A stretch of DNA of 32,000 nt from Candidatus Electronema halotolerans (GCA_942493095.1 OW818675.1:1830001-1862000); one strand, 5' to 3'. Shown: positions 12,591 to 25,547, counted from the first letter of the stretch. The notes: generated from the letters alone by a model not told the origin. Program-made: numbers and translations.

Positions 12591-13213
12591 TTATTCTTTC
12601 CGTCCAGGCCGACCTTGCTTTTTATTTGACAGGCGAATTCCCAGTTTCTTTTCGATCTCTTCCTGAAATAGATTGCTGCCGGTCAACTGCCCTCTTTGCA
12701 ATGCTTCCCGTATCAGCTTGATTTCATATTCCTTATACGCTGTTTGCCGTTCCTGTTCAGCATCTCCTAATGAGAGATAAAACGGCGGTAGATCAACAAC
12801 TGCATCTTTTCAGATACTCCTTGGTGGATATTATGCTGGATTTATAGTGTCCTTTCCACAAGCTGCCTGAACGGCCCTCCATTTTGTTGACATATCTCGT
12901 CTGCTGCCCAGCAACTCGCTTCATCAGGAGCGCAAGTGATTCTGGATTCCCGCTTTAGTCAACGATGAGGTGGACATGGTTGGTCATCAGGCAGTTTATC
13001 CGCCACACGTAGGGTCGATTCATGAATCGACCCTACGTGTGGCTCCGGCTATATTTTGCAGCCGAACTCCTGTTAAAAGGCAGCAAGGTTTTCTCGGTAA
13101 TAATTATAATCGTCATCGGAAGTGAAAACAGTTTGACGATTATGTCCTCGCTGAACAATGTGGTGAGGAGTGTATGGAAGTATCATTCCGGCTGATCGAG
13201 GCCTTTTTGTCAT
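12591..13213 (-). pseudogene. decayed IS200/IS605-superfamily Y1 (HUH) transposase, REP-associated (RAYT-like)
   Basis: My minus-strand translation has three pieces. (1) 13213->: MTKRPRSAGMILPYTPHHIVQRGHNRQTVFTSDDDYNYYRENLAAF*QEFGCKI*. (2) After the 42-bp palindrome: RINCLMTNHVHLIVD*SGNPESLALLMKRVAGQQTRYVNKMEGRSGSLWKGHYKSSIISTKEYLKRCSC*. (3) After a frame change: VVDLPPFYLSLGDAEQERQTAYKEYEIKLIREALQRGQLTGSNLFQEEIEKKLGIRLSNKKQGRPGRKE* (stop at 12591-12593). The HUH box (HVHL) and the Y-motif (GHYKS) are recognisable. The gene carries several in-frame stops, an internal deletion and an insertion. Confidence 0.7.
13002..13043. repeat. 42-bp perfect palindrome (REP-like, GTAG-containing) inserted in the RAYT pseudogene
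   Basis: GCCACACGTAGGGTCGATTCA|TGAATCGACCCTACGTGTGGC, perfectly self-complementary with no loop. It lies between the FGCKI and INCLMTNHVHL segments, which are adjacent in intact family members. Confidence 0.9.
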
Positions 13214-13277: not shown

Positions 13278-13327
13278 CAAAAGGGGACAGATTTATTTTT
13301 TTAAAAAAATAAATCTGTCCCCTTTTG
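13278..13327. repeat. 50-bp perfect palindrome (REP/MITE-like; could act as a bidirectional terminator)
   Basis: CAAAAGGGGACAGATTTATTTTTTT|AAAAAAATAAATCTGTCCCCTTTTG. The GGGGACAG...CTGTCCCC stem is flanked by A4/T4. It makes the two overlapping track ORFs encode the mirror peptide KRGQIYFFKKINLSPF. Confidence 0.9.
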
Positions 13328-13510: not shown

Positions 13511-13548
13511 AAGGCCGTCTTCAGCACTTCTGAAAACGGCCTTTTTTG
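13511..13548. terminator. intrinsic terminator hairpin downstream of the Rhs/52-aa ORF unit
   Basis: AAGGCCGTCTTCAG ... CTGAAAACGGCCTT forms a 14-bp stem with 1 mismatch. TTTTTTG follows on the + strand, and ACTCGTTTTTT follows on the - strand. It lies about 110 nt beyond the 52-aa ORF stop. Confidence 0.45.
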
Positions 13549-13660: not shown

Positions 13661-13819
13661 CTATCTCAAATAATTACTAACAAGAAAAAAAAGTAAAAGA
13701 AAAAAACTTGCAAGCCCACCTTTTAGCAAATAGCTTTCTATTCCGACAACGTTGCTAATACGTTGAATACCAAACCCCATAACAATACAATATAAAGTAA
13801 ATGTAAACAAAAATCTCAT
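13661..13819 (-). CDS. 52-aa two-TM protein, candidate immunity protein for the Rhs C-terminal toxin
   Basis: Not in the ORF track (under 60 aa). My translation is MRFLFTFTLYCIVMGFGIQRISNVVGIESYLLKGGLASFFLLLFFLVSNYLR*. ATG at 13819-13817, 28 nt after the Rhs stop; TAG at 13663-13661. Two hydrophobic helices, very AT-rich. The SD is weak. Confidence 0.4.
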   Translation of the reverse strand: MRFLFTFTLYCIVMGFGIQRISNVVGIESYLLKGGLASFFLLLFFLVSNYLR

Positions 13820-13847
13820 AGAAGTCACTTGCTATAAATTTCCCACT

Positions 13848-16800
13848 TCAATTACCATCACAAGGTGATGTTTGCTTCCATTCACCATTAATTGACTGTT
13901 CAGTAGCTCCCCCTAAAACTCCCCCCAATACAGCTGCTCCTATTGTTGTTGATACACTCCCGCCAATCAGTATAGCAGACGGATCACCTGTGACTGCTCC
14001 TACTACTGCCCCAGTAACGGCCCCCACTACTGCTCCACCTGCCGCTGCACCGATAATGTTTTCAGCATGGAATCCATTGCCTTGGATTGCTGAAATTACT
14101 TGAGAACCTAATCCGTATGATGCGCCACCAAGTCCCCCAATAACGGCCCCCGCGCCAGTGGCTGCCCAACTCCATAGCTTTCCCTCAGGATCAACCAACC
14201 CCACCGGATCCCCCACCACATACCCATACAAATCCACATCCCCGCCCGCAAAGAAGATCGGGTCTTTAGCAACCCAACGCCCAATTGCCGGGTCGTAATC
14301 CCGGAAACCGAATTTGACCAGCCCGGTATCCCGGTCATGCAGGCCGCCTGCAAAGCCGAAGGGCACGGCCAAGGCGGGATTGCTGTCGGAAAGAATCGTG
14401 CCAAAGGAATCATAGCTGATTTCTTTGACCACATTGCCGGTCGCATCGGCAACAGTGCGCAGCGAGCCGACCTGATCATAGCCCAGATAATAGGTCGCGC
14501 CGCTGGCGGTCATGGCTGCGGGCATTCTGCCGTCCGCATACTCAAAGCGCATCAGCAGGTTGTCGCTGCCGTCATAGACTGCCATGAGTTTGGTCAGGCC
14601 AAGCCAGAGATATTTTTCCACAATCGTGCCGTTGACCTTCTTGGCAATCCTGCGGCCCAGCGGGTCGTGGAGGTATTCAATGCTCTTTCCGTCCGGCAAG
14701 GTGACTTGCAGCAGCTCGCCGCGAGAGGAATAATTGTAGGCAGTTACCTCAGCACCTTGGGTCTTCTTGGTCAAGAAGCCGTCTTTGTCAAACTCGTAGC
14801 TCACATCGCCTGCGGAGAGCAGATGATCTTCCTCCGAATAGCTATAATCCCGGCCAGATACACCCTTGAGGCTGTTCATTTCATGTGTGCGGCTGCCGTT
14901 CAGCCCGTACTGATACTCTTCCACAAGAATGCCGCCTTTTTTCACGGTCAGCAGCCTGCCCATGTCGTCATACGTGTAGGCATAGTCAACCGCGCTGCCG
15001 TTCACGGTCTCGGTCTTGCTCAGTATCCTGCCGTTTTTATTCCGAGTCACCGACCAGCCATTGACAGGCTGGGCATTGACCGTCGAGTTTTCCGCAGTCA
15101 GTTCGCCATAGCCGTTAAAGGTGCGGCTGCGGTTCAGGGCATTGCCGCTGACCTGCTCCGGCAAACCATTGGCCGCATTTCTGCTTATGGAATAAACACC
15201 GGAACTGATCAGCAGGCCGTCGTCATCATAGCTGAGATTTTCCGTGCTTCCGGCATACGTGATTGCGGAAAGATTGAAATCGTTATTATACGAGAACGTC
15301 AGCGTCTGATTGAGCGTGCCGCTTTTGCTTTCCGAGGTGAGCAAACTGCCGTCATAGCTGTAGGAAATGCTTTCACCGCCTTTGCTGATCGAACCAACCT
15401 TGGAGCTGCAAAGGTACGTATAATCAATATTGCCTTCAGGAGTCTGCGTCTGAGTCAGCAGATTGTCGGTGTAGATATTGCTGATCTGCGCGCCTGACGG
15501 GAAATCCGTTCGCTTCAGCCGCCTGTCCTTGTCATAAACATAGCTGTACGAGCCGCTGATCGGTGTTTGGTAAGCGTTCTGCCTGTTGACCTTGTTGTAG
15601 GCAAACAGATGGTTTGTCGCTGATGGATTGGTCAGCGCGGTCATGTTGCCGTTGCTGTCGTAGCTGAACTGCACAGTTGTTGTATCAGGCCGGGTTATTG
15701 CGGTCACTCTGCCGACTGCATCATGGCTGTAGGAGGTGCTGCGGCCTTCCGGGTCAGTCTGCGAGGCAAGAAAGCCCTGCGCGTCATAGCTGAACGCCGC
15801 TGTCCGGGTATCCGTGGTGACCGAGGTCAAACGGCCCTTGCTGTCGTAGGCATAGTTGGTCGGAGAAAGGCCAGGAATTTCCACGCTCGTAGTGAGCAGG
15901 GTCGCCGGATCATACGCAGCAGTCACAGTCCTGCCTTCCGGCGTAGTGACCGTCTTTTCCGCTGTCAGGGTGTTATGAACAAGGGTTGTTATTCTGCCGT
16001 CGCGGGAGACAGTTTCCGTAATCAGGTCAGGTATCTCGTCTGTATTCGTATCCTGATAGGTTTTATCTACTTGGGCGACTTTGGTCAGTCCGGCAGGCGA
16101 CTGCGTGCCTGTGCCATGCGCGACTTTGTACTTGTATTCCGCATCCAAACCGTAGTCTGTCCAGCTTGTCATGCCGCAGGAAAGCTCCCGTGTTTCACTG
16201 AGGCCGTCAGCAGAACGGCTGAACGTGCTTTCATTGCCGCTTGGATCAATTGTGGTGGTGGAAAAGGCACCGGTGGAAGCGGTATTATCCAGATTGGTGG
16301 TGCGGTTGCCCTCGGCAGTGAGGGAGTCGATCTGCACCTCGCCGTTCGCCAGCCGTTGGCGGGAGTATTGCCACTGGCCGCCTTCCTCGTCAAGCACCTC
16401 GACGATTTTGCCGTTGGCATCAAAATGATGTTCAAAACGGTTGCCGTTCGGCTCCGTCTCAACGGTCATCAGGCTGTCAGGGCTGTAGGTGAAATTGTAG
16501 GCACTGCTGTCCGGGTAAACGATCTTGGCAAGCTGCTTTTCCGCATTGATGTGCAGCTCGGTGCGCAGGCCGTCCGGGGAAACAATGGCAGTTGTTGTGC
16601 CGTTTGCATCCCGCTCAATGGTCGTGACATTGCCGAACTGGTCGGTGATGGAAAGCAGGTTGTTGTCGCTATCATAGCCGAATTCCTGTAGGACAAGGCC
16701 ACTGTCTAAATCAATGGTCTTTTTATGCAGACCGGCAGCGGACATGATGTAGCCGAGGCCGTTGGAGTCGGCAAAGGGGATGTCGCCTGCGGCAAGCAGG

Positions 16801-19800
16801 TCTGACTTGAATACAGCGGCGGCAAATTCAACTTTGCGGATGCGGTGGTGATCATACTCAGCCATGAAAATATTGCCAAGCTGATCCACTGCCACTTCAA
16901 TAGGATCATCAAGACTGGCCTCAAGAGCTGGGCCGCCGTCTCCGGCATAGCTCGATGACCCGTTTCCTGCCACTGTAGTAATGATGCCGTTTGGATCAAT
17001 CTTGCGGATACGAGAGTTGTATTCGTCGCAAATAAAGAGATTGCCCGCCTGATCTAGAGCAACATCCGTTGGACTGTTAAGTCGAGCTTCAATTGCCGGA
17101 CCGCCGTCACCGCTGTAGCCTGATGACCCTGTTCCCGCTACAGTGGTGATGACGCCGCTGGAATTAACCTTGCGGATGCGATCATGTACGGGGTCGGCGA
17201 TAAAAAAATTGCCAGCCTGATCGACTATTACTCCGGCTGCCCTGATTTTAGCTTGAACAGCAGGAATGTTGTCACCTGTAGAGCTGCCGCCACCCGCCAC
17301 AGTGTTGATGATGCCATTTGTATCCACCTTGCGGATGCTGTCATTGTAGTATCCAATCACATTGACAATAAAGATATTGCCGATTTCATCCACTGCCACT
17401 TCATAAGGTTCATCAAGCTCGGCATCAATAGCTGGGCCGCCATCACCGCCGGAGCCTTCAGTGCCGTTGCCTGCCACAGTGGTGATAATGCCGTTTGTAT
17501 CCACTTTACGGATGCGGTTGTTTCCGGTATCAGCAATAAAAATGTTGCCGAGCTGATCAACTACTACATCATCTGGGTAAGAAATATTGGCCTCAATGGC
17601 TGGAATGTTGTCACCGTTGTAGCCGGAAGAGCCGGTACCGACCACAGTGGTGATGATGCCGTTTTTATCTACCTTTCTGATACGATGGTTATTTCTATCG
17701 GCAATCAAGATATTGCCAAGCGTATCCACTGCCACATCGTCAGGATAATAAAGTTTGGCCTCGGCAGCCGGAATGTCGTCGCCGTTGTAACCGGAAGAGC
17801 CGGTGCCTGCCAGTGTTGTTATGATACTGGAGTTCTTGTTTTCCAGAATGGAGCCATTTCCTTTGTACAGGTGCGCGGCTCGTCTTCCAAAAACATGATG
17901 ATCAGACAGGCTCCAGCCTTCAGCGATATTACCCGCAGCCTTTCCTGCACCAACCTGAAGTTCAAAACGCTGCCACGAAATAACCTCCTGCCGTGCCCGG
18001 ATGCCGGTAACATCACTCCCGGCCTGCGCAAAGGCATTGGAAAAATTCCCGGCTGTCAAGTAAACAGCTTCATAGACAAAGCCGATAGCTACATCAGCAT
18101 CCACAGTTCCTGCTTCCCGGCCCAGATAATCCAAACCATCCCAAGTAAATTGGGCCTGCTGGTTTGGCAACGGTTCCAAAGTCTGGGTCAGCGTGCGCCC
18201 GGCAAGCTTCACCTCCACAATGATGCTCTTCAGACTGTCCGGCACCGTGTCGCTGCTGGCCGGAACCGTGATCACCTGCTTGTAGTCGTCCACCCGATTA
18301 GAGGCGTAATGCAGGGTCATGCCAGTGCCGGGAATCGGAATATCTTCATGAAAGACCCGTCCCCGTTTTTTGACGTAGGAGTTGATGCAGTCGATGTCAT
18401 CTGGATTTTTACCATCGGTTGTTTCAGCTCCTTCCGCATCAGGCGTACCCTTACCATTCGGCGGGATTGCATCCTCCTTCGGGCCATACGGCCAGTTACA
18501 ATCCCACGGCGTGAAATGGGTGATTGCTGCCCGCCAGAAGGTCTTTCCCGGCGCATAGCGGCTCGCATCTTCCAAGCCGATCACTTCATCAGCAAAGGAA
18601 CCATCACTGTTCAAATCATTCGGCAGGTCGTCTTTGTCTGAATCCAGAGCATCTACAACGCCGTCGCCGTCCACATCCAAGAGCTTGACCACAAGGCCGT
18701 TCTCAGACGGCACCCAGACCCCGCGATCCCGGTCGTAATAGCCCACGGGCACGGCCTCGCCGACTTCAAAGCCGAGGAAGTTGTCCACCCAGACAGTAAC
18801 CGGCTTGTCAAAGCGCACCCGTGCCGCACCATCCACCGAAAGCTCTGAACAGTAGGTGTAGGCGGAATTCGGCGGCAAAACCGCAGGCATGGACTCCTGC
18901 GTCTTGAACTCCGTGGCTCTGGCCGTAATGTTCGGCAATTCCTGAATATCATTGCCCTGCTCATCAACCAGATGGGCCATGTTGTCGCCCTGAAAAACTA
19001 TGGTCGCAGAGCGGCTGCCGAATTCGTCCGTAACCGGCGTGCTTACATGCGTGACCACTGTTGCAGGATTGCCGTCAAAAGTGACTTGCGTGGCCGCTGA
19101 ATCTTCAACCAGCATCTGCACCGTTTCAGCAACAGCAATATCATTCCACGGCACATATATTTGACGATGCGCGGTGATATACCCGGCCCGTTTGTAGGCA
19201 ATGGTCATGGTGCCGCCGCCTTCTGCGGGAAGGGTGAATCTGCCGTCCGCAGCGGTCTTTACAGTGCCGTATTCAGGATGCCCATGCACCGTGACGCGCA
19301 CATCCTCTAACGGCGCATCTTGCAGATCATGCACCATGCCAGTGATCAGCGAAAACCGCTTGGCATCGTATTCATCAATCGTCGCATCGTCCGGCACAAG
19401 GTCTTCATACTGCTCACCAAACGAGCCTTCCGGCTGCGCTTCCGGGCTGTTCGTCACTTGCACTGTCACCTGCGCGCTGACCGTGCCCTTGCCCCCTGAA
19501 CCGGTGATGGTGTAGGTTGTTGTGTTTTCTGGACTAACACTGCGGGAATCATTTGCCGCGACCACACCAATGCCGTTGTCAATGCTGATATTTTCAACGT
19601 TGCGGCTCTGCCAGGACAGCTCGGTGGATTCACCGGCGGCAATGGTCTCCGAGACGGCAGAGATGGTGATTGAAGCAGGCACCACGTCAACTGTGGCAGT
19701 GTCCGAGGCCGTGCCGCCCGCACCAGTGGCGGTGATTGTATAGGTGGTGGTCGCTGTGGGAGAAACGCTTTTTGTGCCGTTCAGATCAACCGTACCAATC

Positions 19801-20261
19801 CCGTTGTCTATGCTGACCGTATCGGCATTTGTACTGGTCCAAGTCAGGGCCGAGCTGTCTCCTTCGACGATGGAGGCCGGATCAGCGGTCAGAGAAACCG
19901 TGGGCGGCTGGAGCACAGTGATTGTGACGCTGTCCGTCACAGCGCCTTTTGCTCCTGTGGCAGTGGCCGTATAGATTGTGGTCGCTGTCGGCTTTACAGA
20001 CATGGAGCCGTTCAGATCAACCGCACCAATGCCGTTGTCAATACTGACTGTTTCCGCGTTCTTGCTGGTCCATGTCAGCGTTGCTGTTCCACCCAATTTG
20101 ATCGCAGCCGGTTCTGCGCTCAAAGACACCTTGGGCGAGGAAGCTGTTCGTATCATCATGAACATGCGCAGCAGGGAGCTGTCCGTCTTGTCAGCCCATG
20201 CTGAGGGCAGCAGGAAACAGCACAACATCGCGGCAAGAGACAGCAGGATTGTTTTCTTCAC
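13848..20261 (-). CDS. secreted teneurin-like YD/Rhs-repeat polymorphic toxin (2137 aa)
   Basis: GTG start with GAGGA upstream. Signal peptide is MKKTILLSLAAMLCCFLLPSAWA. In order: 3 Ig-like repeats, a TTR/carboxypeptidase-regulatory-like module, 6 NHL blades, many YD repeats (YDSKGRL, YDAQGFL, YDSNGNM ...), and an Rhs core (YYLGYDQVGSLR...FGFRDYDPAIGRWVAKDP...LYGYVVGDPVGLVDPEG), followed by a 110-aa tail. Confidence 0.93.
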   Translation of the reverse strand: MKKTILLSLAAMLCCFLLPSAWADKTDSSLLRMFMMIRTASSPKVSLSAEPAAIKLGGTATLTWTSKNAETVSIDNGIGAVDLNGSMSVKPTATTIYTATATGAKGAVTDSVTITVLQPPTVSLTADPASIVEGDSSALTWTSTNADTVSIDNGIGTVDLNGTKSVSPTATTTYTITATGAGGTASDTATVDVVPASITISAVSETIAAGESTELSWQSRNVENISIDNGIGVVAANDSRSVSPENTTTYTITGSGGKGTVSAQVTVQVTNSPEAQPEGSFGEQYEDLVPDDATIDEYDAKRFSLITGMVHDLQDAPLEDVRVTVHGHPEYGTVKTAADGRFTLPAEGGGTMTIAYKRAGYITAHRQIYVPWNDIAVAETVQMLVEDSAATQVTFDGNPATVVTHVSTPVTDEFGSRSATIVFQGDNMAHLVDEQGNDIQELPNITARATEFKTQESMPAVLPPNSAYTYCSELSVDGAARVRFDKPVTVWVDNFLGFEVGEAVPVGYYDRDRGVWVPSENGLVVKLLDVDGDGVVDALDSDKDDLPNDLNSDGSFADEVIGLEDASRYAPGKTFWRAAITHFTPWDCNWPYGPKEDAIPPNGKGTPDAEGAETTDGKNPDDIDCINSYVKKRGRVFHEDIPIPGTGMTLHYASNRVDDYKQVITVPASSDTVPDSLKSIIVEVKLAGRTLTQTLEPLPNQQAQFTWDGLDYLGREAGTVDADVAIGFVYEAVYLTAGNFSNAFAQAGSDVTGIRARQEVISWQRFELQVGAGKAAGNIAEGWSLSDHHVFGRRAAHLYKGNGSILENKNSSIITTLAGTGSSGYNGDDIPAAEAKLYYPDDVAVDTLGNILIADRNNHRIRKVDKNGIITTVVGTGSSGYNGDNIPAIEANISYPDDVVVDQLGNIFIADTGNNRIRKVDTNGIITTVAGNGTEGSGGDGGPAIDAELDEPYEVAVDEIGNIFIVNVIGYYNDSIRKVDTNGIINTVAGGGSSTGDNIPAVQAKIRAAGVIVDQAGNFFIADPVHDRIRKVNSSGVITTVAGTGSSGYSGDGGPAIEARLNSPTDVALDQAGNLFICDEYNSRIRKIDPNGIITTVAGNGSSSYAGDGGPALEASLDDPIEVAVDQLGNIFMAEYDHHRIRKVEFAAAVFKSDLLAAGDIPFADSNGLGYIMSAAGLHKKTIDLDSGLVLQEFGYDSDNNLLSITDQFGNVTTIERDANGTTTAIVSPDGLRTELHINAEKQLAKIVYPDSSAYNFTYSPDSLMTVETEPNGNRFEHHFDANGKIVEVLDEEGGQWQYSRQRLANGEVQIDSLTAEGNRTTNLDNTASTGAFSTTTIDPSGNESTFSRSADGLSETRELSCGMTSWTDYGLDAEYKYKVAHGTGTQSPAGLTKVAQVDKTYQDTNTDEIPDLITETVSRDGRITTLVHNTLTAEKTVTTPEGRTVTAAYDPATLLTTSVEIPGLSPTNYAYDSKGRLTSVTTDTRTAAFSYDAQGFLASQTDPEGRSTSYSHDAVGRVTAITRPDTTTVQFSYDSNGNMTALTNPSATNHLFAYNKVNRQNAYQTPISGSYSYVYDKDRRLKRTDFPSGAQISNIYTDNLLTQTQTPEGNIDYTYLCSSKVGSISKGGESISYSYDGSLLTSESKSGTLNQTLTFSYNNDFNLSAITYAGSTENLSYDDDGLLISSGVYSISRNAANGLPEQVSGNALNRSRTFNGYGELTAENSTVNAQPVNGWSVTRNKNGRILSKTETVNGSAVDYAYTYDDMGRLLTVKKGGILVEEYQYGLNGSRTHEMNSLKGVSGRDYSYSEEDHLLSAGDVSYEFDKDGFLTKKTQGAEVTAYNYSSRGELLQVTLPDGKSIEYLHDPLGRRIAKKVNGTIVEKYLWLGLTKLMAVYDGSDNLLMRFEYADGRMPAAMTASGATYYLGYDQVGSLRTVADATGNVVKEISYDSFGTILSDSNPALAVPFGFAGGLHDRDTGLVKFGFRDYDPAIGRWVAKDPIFFAGGDVDLYGYVVGDPVGLVDPEGKLWSWAATGAGAVIGGLGGASYGLGSQVISAIQGNGFHAENIIGAAAGGAVVGAVTGAVVGAVTGDPSAILIGGSVSTTIGAAVLGGVLGGATEQSINGEWKQTSPCDGN
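13851..14180 (-). other. C-terminal cargo domain: glycine-zipper hydrophobic peptide (residues 2028-2137)
   Basis: KLWSWAATGAGAVIGGLGGASYGLGSQVISAIQGNGFHAENIIGAAAGGAVVGAVTGAVVGAVTGDPSAILIGGSVSTTIGAAVLGGVLGGATEQSINGEWKQTSPCDGN. Codons mostly end in A/T (GGT, GGA, GCA, GTA, ACA, TCA, ATT, TTA), unlike the upstream shell. Confidence 0.8.
16824..17828 (-). repeat. six tandem NHL-type beta-propeller blades (residues ~813-1146)
   Basis: About 55-aa units: IITTLAGTGSSGYNGDDIPAAEAKLYYPDDVAVDTLGNILIADRNNHRIRKVDKNG, then IITTVVGTGSSGYNGDN...RIRKVDTNG, and so on through ...IFMAEYDHHRIRKVEF. The DNA copies are diverged. Confidence 0.85.
19449..20135 (-). repeat. three tandem ~76-aa Ig-like repeats (residues ~43-271)
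   Basis: PKVSLSAEPAAIKLGGTATLTWTSKNAETVSIDNGIGAVDLNGSMSVKPTATTIYTATATG... / PTVSLTADPASIVEGDSSALTWTSTNADTVSIDNGIGTVDLNGTKSVSPTATTTYTITATG... / ITISAVSETIAAGESTELSWQSRNVENISIDNGIGVV...TTTYTITGSG... Confidence 0.85.
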
Positions 20262-24660: not shown

Positions 24661-25547
24661 GTGATGGTGAACTGTGAGTGATCAATTAAACAAAAGATTA
24701 TTATTATAATCTTGAATGAACCTCCAGACAGATGCAGTTAAATTTTCGATGCTTCTCGAAAATGAAATGGTCTTTCTGACAAGTGCAGATAATCTTTGTC
24801 TGAATGTCAAATTGAGCCTTTCGATATGACTTGTTTTTCCGCTTCCTTTGCTGACAATTCTATGCCTTTCAGCTGGAAACACGCTCGAATAAGCGGCGAG
24901 TCCATCCGTAAAAAATATTCCGTTCTTTTTGCAATCCTCAGAAAGGGAGTCCCACAAGGCGGCTGCTCCTGCATTATCTCTTTTTCCAACATGATATCCG
25001 ACAATAAGCTTTGTTCTTCTCTCGACAGCAAGCCATATCCAAATATCATTTTTCTTGTCACCAACGAAAGTCCACATTTCATCGGCTTCGATGAAGATTT
25101 TTCCGTTGCGGGACATATTGAAAGCCTCTTTTTTGACTTCATTTCGTTTTTTTTTAACATATTCCTGAAGCCATCTTTTTGAGATGGAAACGGCTCTCGC
25201 AATCCCAGCCAAGGAGATTCTTTCAACAAGAAGCTTATCAACTATGCGCCATTCAGCATCAGATATTGTTTTGTTCTGAGGATTCTCAACGAATTGACGT
25301 GAGCAGTCCTTACATAAAAATTTCTTTTTCCCATTCGCATTGGAGCCATTTTTCACAATGACTGATGAACCACATCTTGGGCATTGCACAGCTTTCTTCT
25401 CCATGTTTGTTTTTTTCATAATGACGGCTTGACATGCGCATCCGACGAAGAGCCGATGGGACAGAGAGCATCCCTTGCCGCCAGTATATTATATTTTTCA
25501 GCAATTTCAACATATTTTCAACCTATCACTCACGATTCACCATTACC
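24660..25547 (-). mobile_element. IS1-family insertion sequence (~888 bp)
   Basis: Terminal inverted repeats are GGTGATGGTGAACTGTGAGTGAT (24660-24682) and the reverse complement of 25525-25547, GGTAATGGTGAATCGTGAGTGAT (20/23 identical, IS1-like GGTGATG...TGAT ends). Flanked by direct repeats, with a single transposase ORF. The interior is AT-richer than the flanks. Confidence 0.88.
24682..25419 (-). CDS. IS1-family transposase (fused InsAB-type, no frameshift)
   Basis: N-terminal zinc finger CPRCGS...CKDCSRQF, an HTH (LAGIARAVSISKRW), and a DDE region ADEMWTFVGDKKNDIWIWLAVERR...FFTDGLAAYSSV...IERLNLTFRQRLSALVRKTISFSRS, collinear with E. coli InsB motifs. Confidence 0.9.
   Translation of the reverse strand: MKKTNMEKKAVQCPRCGSSVIVKNGSNANGKKKFLCKDCSRQFVENPQNKTISDAEWRIVDKLLVERISLAGIARAVSISKRWLQEYVKKKRNEVKKEAFNMSRNGKIFIEADEMWTFVGDKKNDIWIWLAVERRTKLIVGYHVGKRDNAGAAALWDSLSEDCKKNGIFFTDGLAAYSSVFPAERHRIVSKGSGKTSHIERLNLTFRQRLSALVRKTISFSRSIENLTASVWRFIQDYNNNLLFN

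Follow-up and report, generated by a model that had tools for sequence, protein, structure and literature searches.

Here we report the identification of a bacterial teneurin-like protein (TLP) of the polymorphic-toxin class, assigned by its sequence, in the cable bacterium Candidatus Electronema halotolerans. The gene lies in a 32,000-nt stretch of genomic DNA, hereafter the window, and the locus probably forms the end of a teneurin-like polymorphic toxin at which toxin and immunity are encoded, with the last 110 residues of the protein as cargo and a 52-aa ORF behind it as candidate immunity gene.

Bacterial TLPs were defined in 2026, with BiTLP of Bacillus inaquosorum as the prototype (PDB 9IFO/9PT5; Raoelijaona et al., Nat Commun; PMC13018210). 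They possess an Rhs C-terminal autoprotease with the motif PxxxxDPxG, two catalytic Asp residues and a conserved Arg, a cleavage site with a conserved Ser in the N-terminal FN-plug, a short (~15 kDa) and hypervariable C-terminal domain, and immunity genes located downstream (PMC13018210). The hydrophobic cargo of BiTLP inhibits growth if directed to the periplasm but not otherwise, and confers permeability to propidium iodide (PMC13018210).

Domain architecture of the teneurin-like protein

The gene was delimited from the ORF list and translation, and its parts were assigned as follows.

13848..20261, minus strand: TLP gene, 2137 aa (CAK8718667.1)
20193..20261, minus strand: signal-peptide-like segment, aa 1-23 (VKKTILLSLAAMLCCFLLPSAWA, followed by DK), recognized by eye in the translation
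19452..20129, minus strand: three tandem Ig-like repeats of ~75-95 aa each, aa ~45-270, from the translation
19113..19370, minus strand: transthyretin-like (TTR) domain, aa 298-383 (PF25020, E 5.4e-19)
18027..18566, minus strand: FN-plug region, aa ~566-745 (phmmer against BiTLP 9ifo/9pt5 residues 668-846, E 3e-27)
18387-18389, minus strand: codon of Cys625 within the FN-plug, in a loop shared with BiTLP C719 and offset by two positions
18378-18380, minus strand: codon of Ser628 within the FN-plug, opposite the BiTLP cleavage residue S724
16812..17774, minus strand: NHL beta-propeller, aa ~830-1150 (PF25021 and PF01436)
14262..16751, minus strand: YD/Rhs shell, aa 1171-2000 (PF25023 over 1171-2000; seven RHS_repeat matches)
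14181..14414, minus strand: Rhs-associated core with aspartyl autoprotease motif, aa 1950-2027 (TIGR03696, E 2e-19)
14210..14181, minus strand: junction DPVGLVDPEG, aa 2018-2027, from the translation

Pfam comparison of the whole protein returned TEN_YD-shell (2.3e-41), TEN_NHL (6.1e-38), TTR_TEN1-4 (5.4e-19) and RHS_repeat, together with faint Ig-like matches over the three-repeat region, and found no PAAR or VgrG-type domain. The Pfam FN-plug model on its own is weak (E 0.055), and the same region also aligns with animal teneurins at E about 5e-12. The N-terminus resembles a Sec signal ending in AWA before D, as judged from the translation and not by a predictor. In an alignment to BiTLP 2104-2146, the residues R1987, D2000 and D2024 stand opposite BiTLP R2103, D2116 and D2140, and the autoprotease residues are intact. 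Of the elements by which TLPs are recognized, NHL, YD-shell and FN-plug, autoprotease residues, the FN-plug Ser, and a short variable tail are present.

The protein shares with BiTLP the order of TTR, FN-plug, NHL and YD-shell domains, equivalent aspartyl-protease residues and FN-plug Ser, a small polymorphic cargo of hydrophobic, membrane-type sequence after DPxG, an immunity-type gene downstream (here a candidate), and the combination of a cargo Cys with a Cys in the FN-plug loop. It differs in its host, a Gram-negative cable bacterium absent from the genome list of PMC13018210, and in its cargo, which has no sequence similarity to that of BiTLP (the tail family profile found no match in the PDB, including the full 9pt5 chain with its cargo). 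The cysteines also differ in position: the cargo Cys lies 4 residues from the end compared with 21 in BiTLP, and a shift of two residues separates the FN-plug Cys from its BiTLP counterpart. We considered whether the whole protein might be anchored in a membrane at its C-terminus, and set this aside given the intact autoprotease residues and the location of the BiTLP cargo inside a closed shell.

An AT-rich cassette exchanged at the Rhs junction

Downstream of the junction, the following features complete the locus.

13851..14180, minus strand: polymorphic C-terminal cargo, aa 2028-2137 (110 aa), delimited by translation, GC3 break and end of homology
13860..13862, minus strand: codon of Cys2134, candidate tether to FN-plug Cys625 by analogy with BiTLP C2216-C719
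13661..13819, minus strand: 52-aa ORF, candidate immunity protein, with an ATG start (55 aa from the GTG at 13828)
13511..13543, minus strand: terminator-like hairpin with a 14-bp stem and a T-run, apparently closing the toxin-immunity unit, from a consensus scan

The 110-aa tail follows DPVGLVDPEG directly and reads exactly as first quoted in the earlier note on this DNA, which had taken it for the swapped tip of a polymorphic toxin beginning at a sharp codon-usage break. Both points are borne out. The GC3 profile is not flat: the shell has 0.615 and the tail 0.291 (Fisher p=2.4e-11), no stretch of 110 codons in the shell goes below 0.445, and the maximum-likelihood change point is located at ~aa 2039, 12 codons past DPVGLVDPEG. 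Among glycine codons, GGC decreases from 64% in the shell to 15% in the tail. Other genes in the window have GC3 of 0.66-0.76, and the 52-aa ORF has 0.21 (0.212). BLASTN homology to the TLP of Ca. Electrothrix gigas (L006; 82% over 5.7 kb) and to a metagenomic TLP (L007; 72% over 5.9 kb) stops in both cases at 14181, the final base of the DPEG Gly codon. The tail family is absent from all 120 closest shell relatives, and a relative with an unrelated tail displays a comparable GC3 drop, from 0.644 to 0.287. These observations show a cassette swap, in which the tail and the 52-aa ORF were gained as a single AT-rich unit through recombination precisely at DPxG.

No tandem orphan toxin cassettes were found downstream within the window, where tblastn with the core and tail matched only their own gene. 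An IS200-like transposase pseudogene is located just downstream of the locus. Ten neighboring ORFs were scanned, and they include an acyl-ligase/acyltransferase, a PABA synthase, an MFS transporter, an IS1 transposase, the substrate-binding protein and permeases of a binding-protein-dependent transporter, and three ORFs without a match.

Alternatively, the tail could be a low-complexity remnant of a recombination event, decayed or without function and followed by a chance ORF, a reading to which we give a small probability. It would fit the AT-richness of the tail relative to the host gene, the neighboring transposase pseudogene, the 5% chance probability of the downstream ORF, and the condition of the closest relative, the Ca. 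Electrothrix gigas TLP, which is broken into several ORFs and retains a tail of only 20 aa. However, the reading frame of the window gene is intact across 2137 codons, its catalytic R/D/D residues are preserved, the tail matches its family profile end to end over positions 1-104, and the C-terminal Cys typical of the clade is kept, as are S4, G53, G57, D66 and P67 (although the alignment that defines these residues includes the window tail).

A rare family of glycine-zipper modules in Rhs proteins

The cargo consists of a glycine-zipper module, in which a WSW motif precedes a Gly ladder and a GDPS turn, and of a 16-aa extension ending in SPCDGN. It comprises 26 Gly, 18 Ala and 11 Val, with only 8 charged or His residues and no Arg. 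GxxxG pairs number 10 in the tail, where composition-preserving shuffles give 5.7 +/- 1.9 (P=0.024), and triple small-xxx-small zippers number 18, where the shuffles give 11.0 +/- 3.0 (P=0.022). The enrichment above composition is only modest, and the significance of the zipper lies mainly in the conservation of its Gly ladder across homologues.

By sequence, the tail belongs to a rare, unnamed family of Rhs C-terminal domains, of which ~30 members were found. An exhaustive phmmer search with the tail yielded 24 matches at E<=0.001 (E down to 2e-16, 41-56% identity), 23 of them genuine and 5 below 1e-10; the remaining one, P0132, is a repeat protein and was rejected as spurious. A word-indexed homology search retrieved only 5 proteins with the family alignment and nothing with the tail alone, probably because low-complexity candidates displaced the real ones. 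Six further members came from metagenome contigs, where a looser DNA pattern gave 120 stretches and hmmsearch kept 6 loci with 7 module copies. On genome contigs, the strict degenerate DNA pattern gave 6 matches, all out-of-frame chance occurrences and five of them in GC-rich actinomycetes, and this search found the family in no named isolate genome. In every member for which the upstream sequence is present, the module begins directly after the Rhs DPxG, while the shell types differ.

The invariant columns of the family are S4, G53, G57, D66 and P67, in an alignment that includes the window tail, and W5, G11, G15, G34, G49 and G61 are conserved in at least 90% of members. The window tail spans profile positions 1-104 and carries all the hallmarks, namely WSW, G11, G15, G34, the G49-G53-G57-G61 ladder and the invariant D66-P67. 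No enzymatic match was found for it in Pfam, NCBIfam or the PDB, which supports the proposal of the earlier note that the tail is a non-enzymatic, membrane-type glycine-zipper peptide.

The only Pfam matches are sub-threshold ones to glycine-zipper families, with which the tail shares a Gly-ladder helical hairpin (PF13441 YMGG, PF13488 Omp, PF13436 OmpA, PF05433 2TM). The best match of the window tail, PF13441, scores 15.0 bits against a cut-off of 28.9. Among 22 family members, weak matches occur to PF13441 in 6, to PF13436 in 4 and to PF13488 in 4, judged by E-values alone, which go down to about 6e-5. Unlike these families, the tail family has its own WSW and GDP(S/T)A turn. The W-TIP pore-forming toxin domain, defined by two TM helices, an RxxR signature and the W-TIP motif (Zhang et al. 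2012, PMC3482391), was rejected as an assignment, since the tail lacks both Arg and the TIP tripeptide.

An AlphaFold2 model of the tail, of low confidence (pLDDT 60.7), predicts helices at residues 2-32, 39-65 and 67-98. Over windows of 19 residues, Kyte-Doolittle hydropathy peaks at 2.0 in helix 2 and at about 1.7 in helix 3, and both predicted helices would be hydrophobic enough to span a bilayer. The invariant Asp-Pro turn would join them, and the conserved ladder G49-G53-G57-G61-(G65) of helix 2 would suit helix-helix packing. A Foldseek search of the PDB with this low-confidence model gave only matches to unrelated membrane helices at E>=5.

Downstream ORFs of stand-alone and composite members

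A role of the 52-aa ORF as an immunity gene appears plausible. The ORF starts 28 nt past the TLP stop, and its hydropathy profile has two peaks corresponding to two hydrophobic helices. Small TM ORFs follow the module in every stand-alone member with readable downstream DNA (the window, L001, L003, L004, L026, L125 and L002), an arrangement to be expected if such ORFs confer immunity to a toxin that acts on membranes. These candidate immunity ORFs have no significant mutual similarity, the best pair being those of the window and L125 (40% over 30 aa, E 0.04). Against an immunity role for the 52-aa ORF, an ORF of its length arises in 5% of shuffles, it lies in DNA of 32% GC, where T-rich codons yield hydrophobic residues, and no obvious Shine-Dalgarno sequence is seen upstream. 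The hairpin beyond it is by itself weak evidence for the end of a unit, given 5 terminator-like sites in total against 2.4 expected in shuffles.

The family divides by what follows the module. At most 70 residues follow it in 26 of 32 members, in which the module is therefore taken as the whole cargo. The 6 composite members have a further 91-293 residues, in which a linker, Pro-rich or of the RPRPG type, leads to a variable domain that is not hydrophobic. Two of them (L014b and L005) share an extra domain (KLxHIFGKPQHNL...) and a conserved soluble downstream ORF, and have no TM ORF. Neither the extra domains in the composite members nor the soluble ORFs behind them matched anything in Pfam.

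This arrangement recalls Tde1, a T6SS DNase of Agrobacterium, in which an N-terminal run of GxxxG motifs permeabilizes the membrane and serves translocation (PMC10240207); the composite members likewise carry the module ahead of another domain, whereas no further domain follows it in the window protein and the other stand-alone members. It suggests, from sequence, that in the diverged composite subfamily at least the module serves membrane entry and is not itself the lethal part. Extended to the whole family, the module would be an insertion or translocation device rather than a killer, acting in the window protein in contact, signaling or some sub-lethal effect. Among composite relatives, its task would be to bring a soluble toxin domain through the target membrane. 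In the window protein, which carries no additional domain, the module would do no more than insert into a membrane, and a Cys2134-Cys625 disulfide could allow it to anchor or display the adhesin fragment from the N-terminus. The composite members with their soluble ORFs speak for this extension, as do the Tde1 glycine zipper, required for translocation and not for DNase activity (PMC10240207), and the TLP study itself, which raises both a cargo linked to N-terminal domains by a disulfide and a role in cell-cell communication (PMC13018210). We nevertheless consider it unlikely: nothing substantial follows the module in 26/32 members, a small TM ORF is the consistent downstream neighbor of the stand-alone ones, and the module of the composite subfamily has diverged, being longer and with an internal repeat. 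The status of the extra domains as toxins is itself putative, as they match nothing in Pfam. A membrane-acting toxin with its own immunity gene is the reading that we prefer for the window.

Comparison with known membrane-acting toxins

The earlier note had likened the tail to microcin V. A peptide of the colicin V or class II bacteriocin type, whether homologous or acting alike as a free diffusible peptide, would share its Gly/Ala-rich hydrophobic core, its near-terminal Cys and the presence of a small hydrophobic ORF nearby, reminiscent of cvi. However, BLASTP could not align the tail with CvaC at E<=100 (the CvaC sequence being verified at 100% identity to annotated cvaC genes), comparison of the family profile with CvaC by hhalign gave a probability of 4% over 15 columns, and Bacteriocin_IIc (PF10439) was not matched at E<=1. 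The tail has no double-glycine leader and no gene of its own but ends a 2137-aa protein, after an Rhs autoprotease site; the ten neighboring ORFs scanned include no C39-peptidase ABC exporter; and there is one Cys, where colicin V has two that form a disulfide. The likeness is compositional as far as sequences tell, and we regard a colicin V-type peptide as highly improbable.

Closer precedents exist among proteins that enclose or deliver membrane-type cargos. In Tse5 of Pseudomonas aeruginosa, an Rhs cocoon chaperones an autoproteolytically released, pore-forming toxin that depolarizes the membrane and is paired with the immunity gene tsi5 (PMC10684867). The window TLP likewise has an Rhs shell with a membrane-type cargo, whereas Tse5 depends on type VI secretion with VgrG1c and the TLP has a signal-peptide-like N-terminus, teneurin-type N-terminal domains and no PAAR/VgrG. 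No sequence relationship to Tse5 was detected with the family profile in a copy of the PDB that may lack Tse5-CT. Pairing of a membrane-attacking cargo with a teneurin-like shell, which the earlier note had expected to be unusual, is therefore of an already documented kind, in view of BiTLP (PMC13018210) and Tse5 (PMC10684867), and 23 of 110 tails on the teneurin-like shell clade are Gly+Ala-rich.

Comparable toxins also occur in other delivery systems. EsxX (LXG/T7SS) is a glycine-zipper depolarizing toxin with membrane immunity proteins (PMC12744356), CdzC/CdzD of Caulobacter form a glycine-zipper depolarizing toxin (PMC5380434), and the CdiA-CT ionophores are hydrophobic and paired with membrane-localized CdiI (PMC11630599). 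These are non-enzymatic glycine-zipper or helical-bundle toxins carried as the C-terminal part of polymorphic delivery proteins and neutralized by small or polytopic membrane immunity proteins, in highly polymorphic toxin-immunity pairs. The window cargo and its candidate immunity protein resemble them, but homology was not detected. The CDI ionophores are predicted five-helix bundles located after an entry domain, while the window module has three predicted helices.

Candidate disulfide latch and proposed mode of action

The earlier note was apt in drawing attention to a Cys near the C-terminus. The tail has a single one, C2134, fourth from the end, and it is probably disulfide-bonded to FN-plug Cys625, by analogy with the C2216-C719 bond that joins cargo to FN-plug in the structure of BiTLP and has been seen in BiTLP only (PMC13018210). 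A Cys is found within the last 8 residues in 62 of 120 shell relatives, against a Cys background of 0.5%.

We propose the following mode of action. The 2137-aa protein probably exits the cytoplasm by its Sec-type signal and would build a cocoon of FN-plug, NHL and YD-shell. Self-cleavage at the Rhs aspartyl-protease site, predicted after K2028 +/- one residue from the alignment with BiTLP, would free a hydrophobic peptide of ~109 aa that remains within the shell, and the shell would act as chaperone for a cargo otherwise insoluble. The end of the peptide would probably be tied to the FN-plug by Cys2134. In the envelope of a neighbor, the peptide most likely enters the cytoplasmic membrane from the periplasmic side, where it may oligomerize via its Gly faces and dissipate the membrane potential or permeabilize the membrane. 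In the inner membrane of the producer, the 52-aa two-helix protein would block the module by helix packing.

Implications for teneurin-like toxins and cable bacteria

The window TLP adds cable bacteria to a recently defined class of bacterial teneurin-like toxins; it fills in a member and leaves the understanding of Rhs and teneurin toxins otherwise unchanged. The Cys-containing tip in 62/120 clade cargos suggests that the single disulfide seen in BiTLP is a general cargo latch. The clear conserved motifs of the tail family give concrete residues for mutation, and its occurrence both as a whole cargo, with TM ORFs, and ahead of another domain, with soluble ORFs, provides a natural experiment on glycine-zipper killing versus translocation.

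A more far-reaching scenario, which we offer tentatively as the less probable course, is that the module is an undescribed and dual-use one. Alone it would be a complete depolarizing toxin countered by tiny two-helix immunity proteins, and fused upstream of soluble domains it would be their entry device. Every cargo of the clade would be latched to the FN-plug by a near-terminal (often Pro-Cys) cysteine, with release gated by disulfide reduction or exchange. If so, the toxin would enforce kin exclusion between the filaments of cable bacteria, which depend on a shared, energized envelope.

Domain architecture of the teneurin-like protein

The teneurin-like protein (TLP) gene of the window is the minus-strand ORF 13848..20261, whose 2137-aa product matches exactly the sequence of CAK8718667.1, a protein annotated as hypothetical from the cable bacterium Candidatus Electronema halotolerans, which has a 3.2-Mb genome. 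Its features are as follows.

19452-20129, minus strand: three tandem Ig-like repeats of ~75-95 aa each, at the N-terminus, upstream of the TTR domain
aa 298-383: TTR_TEN1-4 domain (Pfam)
teneurin NHL and RHS repeats, present (Pfam)
aa 1171-2000: teneurin YD-shell (Pfam)
aa 1950-2027: Rhs-associated core (NCBIfam)
14210..14181, minus strand: DPVGLVDPEG, aa 2018-2027 (translation)

The Ig-like repeats presumably form an adhesion or display part. TLPs were defined in 2026 as a class of polymorphic toxins, in which a cocoon of FN-plug, NHL, and YD-shell encloses a hypervariable cargo of ~15 kDa, autoproteolysis occurs at two places, the FN-plug Ser and the Rhs DPxG site, and the immunity gene lies directly downstream of the toxin gene (PMC13018210). 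Among PDB sequences, the window TLP is matched best by 9IFO and 9PT5, both labelled "teneurin-like protein" and both from that study. In the alignment with BiTLP, the Bacillus inaquosorum prototype, the catalytic residues R2103, D2116, and D2140 correspond to R1987, D2000, and D2024, and the FN-plug cleavage serine S724 corresponds to S628.

Tail composition and codon usage

The earlier note had described a Gly/Ala zipper-rich tail with a Cys near its C-terminus and a sharp codon-usage break following DPVGLVDPEG, and these observations stand. The 110 residues after the junction (14180..13851), exactly as quoted there, include 26 Gly, 18 Ala, and 11 Val, just eight charged or His residues, and a sole Cys, C2134, fourth from the end; they contain ten GxxxG pairs versus 5.7 +/- 1.9 in shuffles (P=0.024). 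The GC3 profile is not flat, falling from 0.615 in the shell to 0.291 in the tail (Fisher p=2.4e-11), with a minimum of 0.445 in any 110-codon shell window and the best change point at aa 2039, while the GGC share of glycine codons drops from 64% to 15%. The AT-rich stretch runs through a downstream 52-aa ORF (13661..13819, minus strand; GC3 0.21) to a terminator-like hairpin at 13543..13511; seven other genes of the window have GC3 of 0.66-0.76.

Other elements were observed in the window.

12835-13213 (approximate), minus strand: frameshifted IS200-like Y1 transposase remnant, one fragment matching PF01797 (28.1 bits, cut-off 23), adjoining the toxin-immunity cassette beyond the hairpin
13279-13326: AT-rich perfect palindrome with a 20-bp stem (AAAAGGGGACAGATTTATTTTTTT/AAAAAAATAAATCTGTCCCCTTTT), between the hairpin and the remnant
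24682-25419, minus strand: IS1-family transposase (DDE_Tnp_IS1 and InsA zinc ribbon), a second foreign element, with GC3 of 0.37 versus 0.66-0.76 in host genes

The palindrome could serve as a terminator in both directions, or it could represent a transposon end or an element of the REP type.

Cassette swap at the DPxG junction

Searching with the C-terminal 500 aa of the TLP gave 1519 relatives, the best 120 of which were examined. They are 54-88% identical across the aligned region, which in most of them covers ~78% of the query and represents the shell part; their post-DPxG sequences are related neither to one another nor to the window tail, and the tail-family profile described below had no significant match among them. 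In DNA comparisons with the TLP of Ca. Electrothrix gigas (82% over 5.7 kb) and with a metagenomic TLP (72% over 5.9 kb), homology breaks off each time at base 14181, where the glycine codon of DPEG has its final base. The tip of the window TLP is thus a swapped cassette, given that homology ends at this base, GC3 breaks, and the tail family is absent from the best 120 relatives; the earlier reading from the codon usage, that of a swapped polymorphic-toxin tip, was right.

In the metagenomic TLP (L007, 6001-7806), with its unrelated tail, GC3 likewise drops at the junction, from 0.644 to 0.287. An AT-rich tip on a shell of higher GC may be a general trait of the shell clade. A series of PIN and PhdYeFM toxin-antitoxin genes lies downstream at this locus. 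The closest relative (Ca. Electrothrix gigas, GCA_942491745.2, L006, 5518-11488; 82% DNA identity) is split into several separate ORFs with a 20-aa tail, being either a pseudogene or affected by assembly frameshifts, and its genomic neighbourhood differs from that of the window gene.

An unnamed Gly-ladder family

Comparison of the tail with Pfam and NCBIfam gave only sub-threshold matches, to Gly-zipper_YMGG (15 bits, cut-off 28.9) and TraT. When 1.84 billion cluster representatives were searched exhaustively with phmmer, 24 proteins matched at E<=0.001, five of them below 1e-10; one match, P0132, was rejected as a spurious repeat protein. Six further loci were found in metagenome contigs by a degenerate-pattern scan followed by hmmsearch. 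In every homologue with upstream sequence, the match starts immediately after the Rhs DPxG motif, and the shells differ in type, being teneurin-type or classical Rhs. The family alignment (consensus xxWSW..G.GA..G..GG..YG.G.Q..SA..G..F.W..VG..T..GA..GA..GA..GA.TGDPSAL) has invariant S4, G53, G57, D66, and P67, and at least 90% conserved W5, G11, G15, G34, G49, and G61. The window tail belongs to a real, unnamed family.

AlphaFold2 with the family alignment predicted, at low confidence (pLDDT 60.7), helices at 2-32, 39-65, and 67-98, and the best Foldseek match of this model in the PDB had E=5. Helices 2 and 3, whose Kyte-Doolittle means over 19 residues reach 2.0 and about 1.7, flank the invariant Asp-Pro in the model and therefore would form a Gly-ladder helical hairpin.

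Comparison with known toxins

The label "microcin-V-like" given to the tail earlier reflects composition only, since BLASTP of the tail against the colicin V precursor CvaC (a sequence 100% identical to annotated cvaC genes) found nothing, and hhalign of the family profile gave a probability of 4% over 15 columns; the likeness is an analogy, not homology. The profile matched no PDB chain, even with the full BiTLP chain including cargo in the library, and the tail is therefore unrelated to the BiTLP cargo by sequence; the two proteins differ in cargo, whereas they share the cocoon architecture and catalytic residues. W-TIP, the one pore-forming domain listed in a 2012 survey of polymorphic toxins and defined by RxxR and W-TIP motifs (PMC3482391), was rejected, as the tail has neither motif.

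The pairing of such a cargo with this shell, previously considered unusual, turned out to be common and of a documented kind. The hydrophobic cargo of BiTLP inhibits the growth of E. coli only if it carries a signal peptide, and it renders cells permeable to propidium iodide (PMC13018210); the Rhs shell of Tse5 chaperones a pore-forming, depolarising cargo (PMC10684867); and the depolarising toxin EsxX, which has a glycine zipper, is neutralised by immunity proteins of the membrane (PMC12744356). Moreover, 23 of 110 tails (at least 50 aa, from the best 120 of 1519 shell relatives) have at least 30% Gly+Ala. These are hydrophobic and fall outside the WSW/GDPS family, and therefore several unrelated glycine-zipper-type cargo families occur on one shell type.

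The C-terminal cysteine

A disulfide joins C2216 of the BiTLP cargo to C719 of the FN-plug, which lies four residues ahead of the cleavage site G723|S724 (PMC13018210). In the window TLP, the same FN-plug loop (DDIDCINS, in which S628 aligns with S724) contains C625.

13860-13862, minus strand: Cys2134 codon, cargo tip
18387-18389, minus strand: Cys625 codon, FN-plug loop

Both relatives with N-terminal sequence have a Cys in this loop and another at the cargo end. Among the best 120 of 1519 shell relatives, 62 carry a Cys within the last eight residues of otherwise unrelated tails, penultimate in 37 and often as Pro-Cys, at an overall Cys frequency of 0.5%. Together with the Cys of the FN-plug loop, and by analogy with the BiTLP disulfide, this pattern suggests that the near-terminal Cys is a general cargo latch across the shell clade.

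Candidate immunity gene

The 52-aa ORF, which has two hydrophobic segments, begins 28 nt beyond the stop codon of the TLP gene. Each stand-alone homologous tail (one that forms essentially the whole C-terminal region) with readable downstream DNA is likewise followed by a small transmembrane-type ORF.

L001: 56 aa
L003: 52 aa
L004: 55 aa
L026: 52 aa
L125: 94 aa
L002: 115 aa, called gene 1729-2076, used in place of an alternative 140-aa ORF that starts upstream, within the toxin gene

These ORFs have a common architecture and no significant sequence similarity (best pair E 0.04). The window ORF lacks a clear ribosome-binding site, and when the AT-rich spacer is shuffled, 5% of the shuffles contain an ORF of its length; the window ORF is a plausible candidate immunity gene.

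Composite members

The module is followed by at most 70 residues, often Pro-rich, in 26 of 32 family members, and by 91-293 further residues in the other six. In one composite subfamily (L014a, L014b, L124, L052, P0139, and frameshifted L005), the module is longer and internally repeated, and an RPRPG or Pro-rich linker connects it to variable non-hydrophobic domains, which Pfam does not recognize.

L014, 214-1122 and 2105-2779, minus strand of the stored locus: composite members, metagenome
L005, 2312-3438: composite member, metagenome
L124, 1554-3044: composite member, metagenome
L052: composite member, metagenome

L014b and L005 have in common an extra domain and a soluble downstream ORF. 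The recurrent domain reads KLxHIFGKPQHNL..., with the conserved soluble ORF behind it, and the L014 and L005 loci resemble arrays of orphan Rhs-tip cassettes.

In these proteins the module precedes soluble domains, which fits a membrane-entry role there, and such a role was reported for the glycine zipper of Tde1 (PMC10240207). That the module is a membrane-entry or anchor device in the stand-alone form as well is the main rival reading, which we consider unlikely.

Proposed mechanism

For the window TLP, we favor, with fair though not high confidence, a membrane-attacking cargo toxin with a two-helix immunity protein. The protein would be exported via Sec, after which the cocoon would fold. 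The architecture, the junction, the swap, the family membership, and the gene neighbourhood are demonstrated above; from cleavage onward, the scheme is modeled on homologues and analogues: the TLP would cleave itself near G2027/K2028 and at N627|S628, keeping the hydrophobic cargo inside the shell, tied via C2134-C625, until contact-dependent release. The helix 2-3 hairpin would then insert from the periplasm into the cytoplasmic membrane of the target, and Gly-ladder oligomerisation of the peptide would lead to depolarisation or permeabilisation, from which the two-helix membrane protein would shield the producer.

The text-form supplementary genome lists of the TLP study include no cable bacteria (PMC13018210). 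With its unnamed cargo family and its new host group, the window TLP is a new member of a kind of system that is already known.
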